Of a stretch of DNA of 4,101 nt, positions 68-3,627 are shown one piece after another (position 1 is the stretch's first letter; each line of letters begins with the position of its first letter). The stretch comes from a virus (Duplodnaviria; Heunggongvirae; Uroviricota; Caudoviricetes), in IMG/VR virus record IMGVR_UViG_2740892439_000015; one strand, 5' to 3'. Under the pieces are notes generated by a model. The model ran no database searches and was not told the origin of the DNA. It saw only the letters and a program-made list of their open reading frames with translations. The position numbers and the translations under genes are program-made.

Positions 68-143
68 TGGTGGCCCCTACCGGATTTGAACCGGTGACCG
101 TGCGATTATGAGTCGCCTGCTCTAACCACTGAGCTAAAGGGCC
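68..143 (-). tRNA. tRNA with CAU anticodon; tRNA-Ile2 (lysidine) type more likely than elongator Met
   Basis: Reverse complement of 68-143 folds as a 76-nt cloverleaf: acceptor GGCCCTT/AGGGGCC (one G.U), D-arm GCTC-AGTGGTTA-GAGC, anticodon arm GGCGA-CTCATAA-TCGCA, T-arm ACCGG-TTCAAAT-CCGGT, discriminator A, encoded CCA (plus-strand TGG at 68-70). The anticodon stem-loop GGCGACTCATAATCGC matches what I recall for enterobacterial tRNA-Ile2 (ileX/ileY class). G1-C72 pairing argues against initiator tRNA. Confidence 0.85.
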
Positions 144-1423: not shown

Positions 1424-1492
1424 CCGGGATGTTTGACTTAACCACTAAGGAGGATTGTTTTAACTGTTCCGCGTGCGCTTAGCCGCATTCAC

Positions 1493-1604
1493 CGCAATGG
1501 TAAGAGCACTTGGCTGGCTGGGCGGCGATGACGCCTGTACGCATTTGGTGATCCGGTTCTGCTTCCGGCATTCGCTTAATTAGCCAAATACTCTTAACGT
1601 TGCG
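1493..1604. repeat. tRNA-3'-end-associated long-stem inverted-repeat element, copy E1 (degenerate)
   Basis: Arms 1493-1513 (CGCAATGGTAAGAGCACTTGG) and 1584-1604 (CCAAATACTCTTAACGTTGCG): 17 Watson-Crick pairs, 1 T.G and 3 mismatches over 21 positions, enclosing 70 nt. The 3' arm ends 1 nt from the CCA end of the Ser-like tRNA (1606). Plus-strand flank GCATTCAC and arm core GGTAAGAGCA are shared with E2/E3. Confidence 0.6.
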
Positions 1605-1605
1605 C

Positions 1606-1692
1606 TGGCGGAGAGTAATGGAATCGAACCATCATCGCTTGCGCAATGGGACGGTTTTCAAGACCGCTTGAGCACCATGCTCCCTACTCTCC
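1606..1692 (-). tRNA. type II (long variable arm) tRNA, anticodon UGA; tRNA-Ser(UGA)-like, atypical D-region
   Basis: Reverse complement is 87 nt: acceptor GGAGAGT/ACTCTCC (7 perfect pairs), anticodon arm GCGGT-CTTGAAA-ACCGT (U33, anticodon TGA, A37), 17-nt variable region containing a 5-bp stem with GCAA tetraloop (ATTGC-GCAA-GCGAT), T-arm GATGG-TTCGATT-CCATT, discriminator G, encoded CCA. The D-region (AGG GAGC-ATGGT-GCTC AA) has 3 nt before the D-stem and a short loop, so function is uncertain. Confidence 0.6.
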
Positions 1693-1826
1693 AGTGATTG
1701 TGGCGACCGGTGCTGATCTCCGGCTTGCGGTTATTTCAGACTCTCACGGGCGTTTAATTGCCCCGCCGAACAGCTCTTTTCCGCAATAGCTGCAATGTCT
1801 TTCGCGCATCAGCCTGCGCATTCACC

Positions 1827-1918
1827 ACAATGTTGAGAACACTGGTTGTTACGCTGCAACGCAACATTTATTCGTAGATTGGGATATGACCCCGTTACGC
1901 CAGTGTTCTCAACGTTGT
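1827..1918. repeat. tRNA-3'-end-associated long-stem inverted-repeat element, copy E2
   Basis: Arms 1827-1845 and 1900-1918 pair over 19 positions with a single T.G (core GTTGAGAACACTGG / CCAGTGTTCTCAAC perfect), enclosing 54 nt. The interior has a hairpin that is U-A/G.U-paired only when read from the minus strand (TTGCG-TTGCAG-CGTAA). The 3' arm abuts the Thr-like pseudo-tRNA 3' end at 1918. Plus-strand flank GCGCATTCAC is shared with E1. Confidence 0.65.
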
Positions 1919-1982
1919 AGTGCCGGTTACGGTTCCGGCCAGGCCTCTTCCTCAACGGGGTGTTCTCCATACGGACTACCGT
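1918..1982 (-). pseudogene. pseudo-tRNA remnant, chimeric: tRNA-Thr-like 3' end joined to tRNA-Tyr-like 5' segment
   Basis: 1918-1932 TAGTGCCGGTTACGG resembles the tRNA-Thr 3' end at 2147-2162 (TGGTGCCGGTTAACGG). 1970-1980 TACGGACTACC resembles the tRNA-Tyr 5' region (TACGGACTAAC, 2298-2308). No acceptor stem or cloverleaf can be formed. Confidence 0.35.
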
Positions 1983-2058
1983 TTATTGGTCGTTCCTGCG
2001 GTTTATGTTGTGAAGCCAGATGCTTATCTTCTGGTTGCTTCTAGGAGCTGCACTTCAT

Positions 2059-2145
2059 CACAACGGTAAGAGCATTTATGGCTCGCATCGCGGGAAAAAG
2101 CCCACGGTAGAGAGTCGAACTCTACAAATGCTCTTACCTGTTGTG
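2059..2145. repeat. tRNA-3'-end-associated long-stem inverted-repeat element, copy E3
   Basis: Arms 2059-2077 (CACAACGGTAAGAGCATTT) and 2126-2145 (AAATGCTCTTACCTGTTGTG) form 19 bp with one bulged T, enclosing 48 nt. The interior has two hairpins on the minus strand: GTAGAG-TTCGACT-CTCTAC (T-arm-like loop) and CGUGGG-CUUUUU-CCCGCG (needs a G.U, so pairs only as minus-strand RNA). The 3' arm ends 1 nt from the tRNA-Thr CCA end (2147). Confidence 0.65.
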
Positions 2146-2146
2146 T

Positions 2147-2222
2147 TGGTGCCGGTTAACGGGATCGAACCGCTGACCATTCGCTTACAAAGCGACTGCT
2201 CTACCAACTGAGCTAAACCGGC
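2147..2222 (-). tRNA. tRNA-Thr (anticodon UGU)
   Basis: Reverse complement is a 76-nt cloverleaf: acceptor GCCGGTT/AACCGGC, D-arm GCTC-AGTTGGTA-GAGC, anticodon arm GTCGC-TTTGTAA-GCGAA (anticodon TGT), variable TGGTC, T-arm AGCGG-TTCGATC-CCGTT, discriminator A, encoded CCA. It differs from the housekeeping E. coli thrU sequence as I recall it. Confidence 0.85.
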
Positions 2223-2226
2223 AATT

Positions 2227-2313
2227 TGGTGGGGAGTGATGGAGTCGAACCACCCGAGTCGCAATGACAGTAGATTTACAGTCTACCCCGCTCCCCCTAC
2301 GGACTAACTCCCC
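2227..2313 (-). tRNA. tRNA-Tyr (anticodon GUA), type II with long variable arm
   Basis: Reverse complement is 87 nt: acceptor GGGGAGT/ACTCCCC, anticodon arm GTAGA-CTGTAAA-TCTAC (anticodon GTA), variable arm TGTCATTGCGACTCG, T-arm GGTGG-TTCGACT-CCATC, discriminator A, encoded CCA. The ACTGTAAATCT and GTCAT segments parallel E. coli tyrT as recalled. Only 4 nt separate it from tRNA-Thr. Confidence 0.8.
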
Positions 2314-2318
2314 TAAAT

Positions 2319-2395
2319 TGGCGATGGTGGGTGGATTCGAACCGCCGACCGACAGCTTAGAAGGCTGCTGCTCTATCCTACTGAGCTACACCATC
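2319..2395 (-). tRNA. tRNA-Arg (anticodon UCU, reads rare AGA codons)
   Basis: Reverse complement is 77 nt: acceptor GATGGTG/CACCATC, D-arm GCTC-AGTAGGATA-GAGC, anticodon arm GCAGC-CTTCTAA-GCTGT (anticodon TCT), variable CGGTC, T-arm GGCGG-TTCGAAT-CCACC (one C/A mismatch), discriminator G, encoded CCA. Same architecture as E. coli argU but divergent sequence. 5-nt spacer to tRNA-Tyr. Confidence 0.8.
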
Positions 2396-3182: not shown

Positions 3183-3270
3183 TGCATTACCGCAACATTA
3201 AGGAGACTCAGGCAAAAGGTAACCGCCACAAAAATCCCTATGCCTCCTTAATGTTGAAGATGTGCATTGA
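3183..3270. repeat. perfect 13-bp inverted repeat (CAACATTAAGGAG / CTCCTTAATGTTG, 38-nt spacer) bracketed by direct repeats GTGCATT
   Basis: Arms 3193-3205 and 3244-3256 are exact reverse complements. GTGCATTAC at 3182-3190 and GTGCATTGA at 3262-3270 flank them as direct repeats. Confidence 0.5.
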
Positions 3271-3627
3271 TGATTAGATGCAGCATGTACCGTTACTCTC
3301 TGCCGGACCATCATCAATGAACACCTTAAAAAGACCTTCCGTGGCTCAACATGTATTGTCGTTTACTCCGCAAAGTGCTCTCTCTGAAACCACTTTCCGC
3401 ACTAAACCTGTTGAACTTTGGTCTGCTCGGTGCCAAAGCGTGCTCTTGGTTTACTATACTTTTCTAACACTTTAATTTGTTAATTGCCGGTGGGTAAACA
3501 ATAACCAATAAGTGACTATCAAGCCCAGCAAGCGAAACGTGGGTACCGCCCACCAGCAAGGAAAATTCTATGTTAAGTCATCTTCACAATCAATACATTC
3601 GAATTGTGATTTTAGATTTCTAACACA

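Follow-up and report, generated by a model that had tools for sequence, protein, structure and literature searches.

A repeated tRNA-Thr 3' end in the tRNA bank of a P1-like phage-plasmid is probably the relic tail of a conserved non-tRNA unit

At the attachment (att) sites that P4-like phages, genomic islands and the remnants of integrative and conjugative elements and cis-mobilizable elements occupy in tRNA genes, a repeat of the tRNA 3' end lies in the same orientation on the 3' side of the intact tRNA. The 4,101-nt stretch of Caudoviricetes DNA analysed here (IMG/VR record IMGVR_UViG_2740892439_000015; hereafter the window, meaning the whole stretch) has this geometry: the 3' end of its intact tRNA-Thr(UGU) gene recurs further along the minus strand as the tail of a conserved unit, which we call psi. 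Unlike at those att sites, the locus comes without a recombinase and without presence/absence polymorphism, the histories of the two copies are independent, and the distal copy is part of a unit that also exists without the tRNA. The repeat copy is probably a relic that forms the tail of a conserved unit, itself part of a modular RNA array, and not an att site.

Arrays that mix tRNAs with other RNAs are known from phages. The T4 species 1 and 2 RNAs are stable non-tRNA RNAs co-transcribed within a phage tRNA cluster, and clusters of the T4 type resemble the window in being polycistronic arrays of tRNAs and small structured RNAs with tRNA-like ends; they differ from it in that each unit here is followed by a long hairpin with conserved arms, and psi is a putative RNA. 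RNase III processing stems are familiar from rRNA operons, T7 early RNA and the maturation of DicF. At ~20-24 bp, and flanking or enclosing RNA to be released in long phage or operon transcripts, they are a close counterpart of the hairpins in the window (E1, E2 and E3), and in P1 a dicF-like region is annotated just upstream. Cleavage of the E stems is, however, putative, and the sequence of their arms (CACAAC...GUUGUG) is unusually well conserved among P1-like, SSU5-like and lambdoid phages.

Two further systems share parts of this layout. The STnc100 or PasD family of prophage small RNAs (sRNAs; Rfam RF02076) has a described association with phages (bioRxiv 10.64898/2026.05.13.724894), and its arrangement of closing stem, 5' hairpin and 3' hairpin is found in a spacer of the window (1698-1822) that is shared with lambdoid prophages. 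Unlike family members, this spacer went undetected by the STnc100 model (Rfam, E<=10, 1690-2150), and a minus-strand match at 1376-1496 is partial (model positions 31-147 only) and below the gathering score (39.4 versus 47 bits). Integron attC cassettes are likewise units bounded by imperfect palindromes with conserved ends and variable centres, but the G.U bias of the E stems points to RNA and not to single-stranded DNA. As a candidate identity attC was rejected: the arms, (C)ACAAC...GTTGTGA, misfit the core RYYYAAC...GTTRRRY by breaking its RRR-Y rule, and there is no integron integrase. Miniature inverted-repeat transposable elements were also rejected, the copies being confined to phage operon leaders, their interiors unrelated and the G.U bias indicative of RNA.

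The repeat and the psi unit

Copy A of the repeat (TGGTGCCGGTTAACGG, 2147-2162) is the last 16 nt of tRNA-Thr, comprising in order the 3' strands of the T and acceptor stems and then ACCA. Copy B (TAGTGCCGGTTACGG, 1918-1932) lies 229 bp from it, start to start, and differs from it in the window by one indel and one mismatch. The common core, GTGCCGGTTA(A)CGG, was found exactly twice in the window (1920-1932 and 2149-2162); over 200 dinucleotide-preserving shuffles the mean number of matches was 0.00, and two copies occurred in 0/200. The first-pass annotation had reported both the repeat and its bracketing of hairpin E3, and in this it was correct, E3 and a 52-nt spacer lying between the copies. 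The bracketing arises because the units follow one another in the order tRNA-Thr, E3, mini-spacer, psi and E2 (Table 1).

Two SSU5-like plasmids (L006 and L013) carry an intact tRNA-Thr in the exact position of copy B relative to a homologue of E2, which is 93-96% identical to that of the window and directly follows the tRNA. Alignment of psi-E2 with these loci is near-perfect from GTAACCGGCAC on and falls to ~35% upstream of GTAACCGGCAC; the homology starts abruptly at GUAACCGGCAC and has a sharp break at the T-stem/acceptor boundary. We take copy B to be derived from tRNA-Thr because the intact gene stands at the same place relative to E2 in these plasmids. The rarity of the core in shuffled sequence, the tRNA-like position of copy B at E2 and the identity of GCCGG with acceptor positions 1-5 are all as such a relic should have them. 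The psi tail is thus most likely a descendant of tRNA-Thr. It would keep GCCGG from the 5' strand of the acceptor, followed by the 3' strands of the T stem and acceptor and by the discriminator, and it is predicted to fold as a microhelix. The hairpin in question, GCCGG-AACCGUAA-CCGGC with an N8 loop, is the 3' domain of psi (minus strand, 2003-1918: AACCGCAGGAACGACCAAUAAACGGUAGUCCGUAUGGAGAACACCCCGUUGAGGAAGAGGCCUGGCCGGAACCGUAACCGGCACUA); its stem equals base pairs 1-5 of the tRNA-Thr acceptor, and a discriminator A follows. In the psi consensus fold a closing helix, CAGG/CCUG, surrounds an inner hairpin. The divergent psi of L041 has UAGG/CCUA in this helix, a compensatory change, and that of the SSU5-like plasmid pSTM_Phi (L016) has a G.U pair there.

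Psi is 100% identical across 8 P1-like loci, P1 (L003) included, at which the adjacent tRNA-Thr is 84-97% identical to that of the window. It was found in 549 plasmids, in 421 of them at an identity of at least 99%, and in 21 phage records including P1, P7, D6, SJ46 and RCS47, with 100% identity in P1, P7, SJ46 and RCS47; 70 of the 110 IMG/VR matches are identical to the window over 120 nt. Divergent copies occur in L012, which is a Citrobacter plasmid (98%), in the early-left leader of the 45-kb Citrobacter phage phiNP (L017, 89%), in L016 (82%) and also in L041. All copies end in GUAACCGGCA(C) with a long hairpin directly after, and which hairpin this is varies by locus, four different ones being present in L012, L016, L017 and L129. 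At 11 loci there is no tRNA-Thr call within 700 nt upstream of psi, and phiNP and other contigs are among those with psi and no upstream tRNA-Thr. In the window, the outermost pairs of the 23-bp E2 stem take in the last 5 nt of psi (CACUA with UGGUG). The psi end varies between CCA and CUA, and its pairing to E2 is retained via G.U.

In 1918-2003 ARAGORN made no call, and Rfam gave no tRNA match at E<=1 (whole window) or at E<=10 (the 461-nt stretch 1690-2150). In the same Rfam searches E2 gave only generic microRNA-like hairpin matches, and psi and E3 gave none. A 53-aa minus-strand open reading frame (ORF) across psi and E2 (1809-1970) was considered and rejected, being broken by a 1-nt deletion in L012 and by a change of frame in L016. 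Psi is best regarded as a conserved unit whose microhelix tail derives from tRNA-Thr; it evolves independently in the P1 family and in some other phages. The origin of the tail from tRNA-Thr would have been an old event, after which psi became fixed.

Layout and exchange of the array units

The window is the tRNA region of a P1-family phage-plasmid, with 95.7% identity to phage D6 and ~90% to P1 and P7 over the shared parts. Its closest matches are P1, P7, D6, RCS47 and P1-like plasmids, and ~90-kb E. coli plasmids match it at 96-98% identity across 94-98% of its length. In the P1 annotation the counterpart region has the C1-controlled ban promoter (Pban, with C1 operators) upstream of it and ban downstream. 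Its tRNAs are without exception encoded on the equivalent of the minus strand of the window, as are all five tRNAs found in the window by ARAGORN and Rfam. The window is therefore the tRNA bank of a P1-like phage-plasmid, situated within the leader of the C1-repressed ban operon and transcribed from the minus strand.

Along that strand the order is Arg - Tyr - Thr, E3, mini-spacer, psi, E2, STnc100-like spacer, Ser, E1 and an STnc100-like segment (Table 1). The locus thus appears to be a chain of structured-RNA units in which each run of tRNAs, and psi, is directly trailed by a hairpin with a stem of ~20 bp, with STnc100-like spacers between some of the units.

Table 1. Coordinates of the tRNAs, psi, hairpins and spacers in the window, in minus-strand order (MFE, minimum free energy of the predicted fold)
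Feature	Position	Strand	Support or description
tRNA-Arg(UCU)	2319-2395	-	ARAGORN, Rfam
tRNA-Tyr	2227-2313	-	ARAGORN, Rfam
tRNA-Thr(UGU), intact	2147-2222	-	ARAGORN; Rfam tRNA 67.2 bits
E3	2056-2146	-	inverted repeat I14; MFE -43.1 kcal/mol
mini-spacer	2004-2055	-	small hairpin CCAGA-AGAUAAGCA-UCUGG; resembles 3' hairpin of STnc100-like spacer
psi	1918-2003	-	86-nt conserved non-tRNA unit; last 15 nt (1918-1932) are copy B
E2	1823-1922	-	inverted repeat I3, 91% complementary; MFE -48.8 kcal/mol on minus versus -41.9 on plus strand
STnc100-like spacer	1698-1822	-	closing stem, 5' hairpin GCGCA-GGCUGA-UGCGC, variable middle, 3' hairpin CCGG-AGAUCAGCA-CCGG
tRNA-Ser(UGA)	1606-1692	-	ARAGORN; top Rfam match tRNA-Sec 44.6 bits
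E1	1490-1608	-	direct-repeat family D4; MFE -44.9 kcal/mol; abuts tRNA-Ser 3' end
tRNA(CAU)	68-143	-	ARAGORN, Rfam

The association of tRNAs with hairpins extends to the other genomes. Over the whole set of loci fetched, runs of tRNAs are followed at once by a hairpin in 13/17 unique contexts where the last tRNA is Thr, in 10/10 where it is Ser and in 7/10 where it is Met(CAT), compared with 4% at random positions, where a hairpin was counted if at least 15 of 18 positions were paired and it started within a few nt of the tRNA 3' end. The E-hairpin arms have a conserved base, CACAAC...GUUGUG, and covary higher up. Across 14 diverse hairpins, pairing is present in 90% of cells and 20 of the 22 pairs changed on both sides, with a covariation score of 0.80 versus 0.26 for shuffles and 0.11-0.26 for slid partners. 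When 25 unique stems were read on the minus strand, their non-Watson-Crick positions were G.U in 59 cases and A.C in 6. This excess of G.U fits selection on the tRNA-sense RNA and weighs against a DNA cruciform or a plus-strand RNA. In their structure, with a predicted 18-27 bp, covariation and G.U far in excess of A.C on the minus strand, the hairpins correspond to RNase III stems.

The arms of E1, E2 and E3 are related (family D4, inverted repeats I3 and I14), and the interiors of E2 and E3 are unrelated. In E3, a stem of ~20 bp (ACAACAGGTAAGAGCATTT / AAATGCTCTTACCGTTGT) begins right after the CCA of tRNA-Thr and encloses a 48-nt interior (2078-2125), in which a T-arm-like hairpin (GUAGAGUUCGACUCUCUAC) is accompanied by another small one; the interior of E2 contains a degenerate T-arm-like segment at about 1880-1895. 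T-arm-like stem-loops are present in several hairpin interiors, namely GGGUUCGAAUCCC in P1 (L003, about 4500-4550), GAGUUCGACUCUC in E3 of the window and GGGGUCAUAUCCC in E2, and the T-loop consensus is thus embedded in non-tRNA hairpins. Upstream of the tRNAs there are four more long hairpins (2593-2675, with E-like arms, 2898-2978, 3190-3259 and 3254-3330) and an intrinsic-terminator-like site on the minus strand (2862-2879), about where the P1 annotation puts its dicF-like region.

The spacers are conserved as well. The mini-spacer shows 96% conservation throughout the P1-like loci, and SSU5-like and Klebsiella plasmids have it immediately before a tRNA-Ser or another hairpin. Over 16 sequence types the terminal hairpins of the 1698-1822 spacer covary, the 5' one as GCGCA/UGCGC, GCACA/UGUGC and GCUCA/UGAGC and the 3' one as CCGG/CCGG and UCGG/CCGA.

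Units and hairpin interiors are exchanged between genomes. The arms ACAACAGGUAAGAGCA...UGCUCUUACCGUUGU enclose at least 12 unrelated interiors. The E3 interior of the window is 100% identical to one in a lambdoid prophage (L005, in the Q-holin leader) and to one at a different array position in L011, while L001 (the closest relative of the window), L008 and P1 have unrelated interiors in its place within the same arms. The 1698-1822 spacer is 98% identical in the early-left leader of a lambdoid prophage (L004), which is present at ~780 E. coli chromosomal places. L008 (about 1616-1775) and 7 IMG/VR contigs (for example L105) have a 160-bp insert exactly at the junction between the psi tail (AACCGGC) and E2; this insert carries a small ORF, MERNMWAFNGIRVVTAIINGELKYSRFETNERDGKCIGVRLVREYA. 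Upstream of E3, tRNA-Arg and tRNA-Tyr (2227-2395) form with tRNA-Thr an exchangeable tRNA block, whose slot is filled by Asn-Thr in P1 and by Asn-Tyr-Thr in L008 and L010. The boundaries of the exchanged modules place the breakpoints at hairpin arms and tRNA ends, and these comparisons show the units to be shuffled among P1-like, SSU5-like and lambdoid phages.

The tRNA genes vary too. The tRNA-Thr allele of the window is 96-97% identical to those of L008 and L013 and 84-87% identical to those of P1 and L001. Between the window and L001 (3606-3681) the whole anticodon stem of tRNA-Thr(UGU) is swapped compensatorily (GUCGC/GCGAA versus CCUGC/GCAGG) together with part of the T stem, and the acceptor stem and D arm are identical, differences that amount to fine-scale mosaicism within the tRNA gene. 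In L016 (about 1715-1835, minus strand) a tRNA-Thr-like gene without an ARAGORN call keeps the acceptor stem, D arm and T arm and has its anticodon arm replaced by an insert of ~72 nt (GCCGGTTTAGCTCAGTTGGTAGAGCGC-[72 nt]-AGGTCAACGGTTCGAGTCCGTTAACCGGCACCA). Just upstream of it is a minimal element of 58 nt that resembles a tRNA in having an acceptor stem of 7 bp and a canonical T arm (GGGAGTT...GAGGTTCGATTCCTCAGCTCCC). The best Rfam model for the tRNA-Ser(UGA) of the window, tRNA-Sec, scores below its gathering score of 47, and RefSeq labels the counterpart in L001 (3084-3170) 'tRNA-OTHER'.

Cargo around the array is also variable. An SPFH-domain gene sits in the slot of the window that holds tciABC in P1, and tciABC has been listed as a variable region of P1-like phage-plasmids (PMC9603915). 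In L001 a gene of the Thoeris anti-defence Tad2 family (534-1109) lies just downstream of tRNA(CAU) in a shared operon, which suggests that counter-defence genes are among this cargo.

Alternative readings of the repeat

Several observations weigh against reading copy B as the tail of an old tRNA-Thr-derived unit in an RNA array. The evidence for tRNA-Thr ancestry amounts to ~15 nt plus GCCGG, and its CCGU part is not conserved in L016. Psi folds no more stably than shuffled sequence (z -0.30), and the evidence for selection on it at the RNA level is one compensatory change. The spacers, too, fold no better than shuffled ones (z +0.18 for 1698-1822 and -0.47 for the mini-spacer). The hairpins counted above were pre-selected for pairing and include related copies, so that the covariation and G.U counts overstate independence, and the strand asymmetry of folding energies in the window is mixed, E2 favouring the minus and hairpin E0 the plus strand. 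Moreover, the tRNA-Thr that sits on E2 in L006 and L013 could formally pass for the vacant form of a site at which 214 bp were inserted between the two repeat copies.

The alternative that survives best, although we consider it unlikely, is a recent in situ tandem duplication of tRNA-Thr with its hairpin, after which the downstream tRNA decayed or fused with a copy of tRNA-Tyr to give a chimera. This would account for the shared arms of E2 and E3, both of which follow a Thr-type 3' end, for the periodicity of unit plus hairpin in the array and for a 9-mer, TACGGACTA, that is common to psi (1970-1978, minus strand) and the D-arm region of tRNA-Tyr (2298-2306). From the 9-mer the first-pass annotation had deduced a Tyr-like continuation of the remnant, and hence a chimeric Thr/Tyr pseudo-tRNA. 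The 9-mer is real, but when the 70-nt body of psi was compared with any of the five tRNAs an equally good match arose in 7.5% of dinucleotide shuffles (P about 0.07); TACGGACTA is out of register, its start being position 8 in tRNA-Tyr and 25 nt from the beginning of psi; and the divergent psi of L016 has UAGUAUGAA in its place. It is best treated as a chance match, and with a psi body devoid of tRNA signal the proposed chimera is not supported. The duplication also has to contend with the unrelated interiors of E2 and E3 and with psi itself, whose sequence does not vary among P1, P7 and D6 and which other phage types carry beside different hairpins. Given this invariance and spread, any duplication must predate the P1 family and is not tied to the present neighbour. 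What endures of the broader suggestion of module duplication, deletion and fusion is its modular part, namely the layout of unit plus hairpin, the shared E arms and the swapping of modules; psi is an old unit of its own and not a recently decayed adjacent tRNA.

It is very improbable that a site-specific recombinase inserted an element into tRNA-Thr, such that the copies are attL and attR with a candidate core of CCGTTAACCGGCACCA and the 214 bp between them a decayed remnant without its integrase. The geometry fits, with an intact tRNA followed by an 'element' and a same-orientation copy of the tRNA 3' end, and the fusion of tRNA-Thr to E2 in L006 and L013, with its sharp break in homology at the T-stem/acceptor boundary, looks like an unoccupied site. 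However, the 214-bp interval contains no integrase-sized ORF (the largest overlapping ORFs are 49-63 aa), nor is one apparent anywhere in the window, and the annotations of the eight P1-like loci fetched place no integrase beside the array. The arrangement is moreover fixed in P1 and hundreds of relatives. None of the P1-like loci examined lacks psi between tRNA-Thr and E2, an island or empty site between the repeats was never seen within P1-like genomes, and tRNA-Thr abuts E2 directly only in the distinct SSU5-like plasmids.

The copies themselves also argue against integration. Beyond the indel and mismatch seen in the window they differ further in most genomes: psi always has AACCGGC and keeps AACCGGCAC, whereas the neighbouring tRNA-Thr has AATCGGC and ends in AATCGGCACCA in 65 of 91 loci, P1's own included. 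Because the psi version is fixed while that of most adjacent tRNA-Thr genes is not the same, the two copies have separate histories. In L001, tRNA-Thr is only 87% identical to that of the window, yet tRNA-Tyr is 99% and psi 100% identical. A recombinase in or adjoining the interval, occupied and empty sites in close relatives, and identical or co-evolving att cores are thus all absent from the loci compared.

By the refuting condition of the first-pass annotation, a lack of variation in content between the repeats, the outcome is mixed. The content does vary, the distance from the 3' end of tRNA-Thr to that of psi being 206, 225 or 421 nt with 34 distinct intervening sequences, but it varies only by swapped or added hairpin and spacer modules of the kind that recur throughout these arrays, and not by an island. 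The 421-nt class, for example, is due to the arrangement in L002, L007 and L010, where a spacer of the 1698-1822 type lies between two hairpins upstream of psi. Since the psi tail is also found beside other hairpins and where there is no tRNA-Thr, the junction in L006 and L013 belongs to the origin of psi and not to an insertion in the lineage of the window; it appears to mark an old recombination at the tRNA 3' end. No element is integrated here and the repeat is not an integration scar; the proposed reduced element in a tRNA gene is not supported.

Chance or convergence, in which psi merely ends in a GC-rich hairpin (GCCGG/CCGGC) that resembles the tRNA-Thr acceptor stem, is hardly credible. 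The palindromic stem does reduce the information content of the match, and in L016 the loop part of the tRNA-Thr-like string at the psi end (CCGU-AACCGGCAC) is replaced by AUAUGUAA, so that only GUAACCGGCAC and GCCGG are common; but none of the 200 shuffles had two copies of the 13-14-nt core, and the match lies at the exact position that real tRNA 3' ends occupy relative to E hairpins and includes the discriminator A and a C. That the stretch is conserved on account of a plus-strand protein, the 'Plp putative lipoprotein' that P1 records annotate over it and antisense to tRNA-Thr, with the repeat incidental, can be dismissed almost outright, for a stop at 2042-2044 leaves just 52 aa of the ORF in the window, RefSeq calls no gene there in P1-like plasmids and the P1 translation is Cys/Ser/Arg-rich, begins at TTG and runs antisense through a tRNA. 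Both P1 genes annotated antisense to the array, upl and plp (L003 4031-4600, plus strand; window 1886-2044), are probably spurious ORFs and an annotation artefact, in the case of plp because of its truncation in the window and the lack of a RefSeq call in the plasmids.

Putative roles of the array

The array is probably made as one transcript, and the E stems would act on the tRNA-sense RNA, most likely as double-stranded processing stems of the RNase III type, separating the tRNAs and perhaps releasing the variable interiors on the pattern of rRNA operons and DicF. Such a processing role for the E hairpins is putative and, on present analysis, somewhat short of an even prospect. Exchange of units would proceed by recombination within conserved sequence, in the hairpin arms and at the ends of tRNAs, with a tRNA and its hairpin moving as a cassette, and we infer that these arms and ends may act as recombination linkers. 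A more speculative possibility combines the two roles. The E hairpins could constitute a cassette system for phage non-coding RNAs in which the stem (~20 bp, CACAAC...GUUGUG, with recurrent G.U near the top) is both processing signal and recombination linker, psi being a tRNA-Thr-derived member. Were this so, tRNAs and small interior RNAs, some of them T-arm-like, would be excised from one long transcript, and P1-like, SSU5-like and lambdoid phages could trade tRNA and sRNA cassettes.

The hairpin-linked RNA array is not annotated in the records examined, and we found nothing on psi or the hairpin modules in the literature on the tRNAs of the P1 ban operon, on phage tRNA arrays with hairpins or RNase III, or on P1 transcriptomes. 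Work on the diversity of P1-like plasmids touches no more than briefly on the variable tciABC region or on phage tRNAs. The repeat itself is an ordinary fixed tRNA-derived relic. Recognizing it as such guards against a false call, since duplication of a tRNA 3' end is usually taken for an att scar and the copy here is a fixed part of one of the most thoroughly studied phage genomes. What has been annotated in P1 since 2004 as the ORFs upl and plp looks instead like a dense array of structured RNAs, the modules of which are exchanged across three phage types. The hairpin-linked modules offer these phages a concrete route for swapping sets of tRNAs (Asn-Thr, Asn-Tyr-Thr or Arg-Tyr-Thr, with or without Ser), and such swapping may bear on how phages tune or protect translation.

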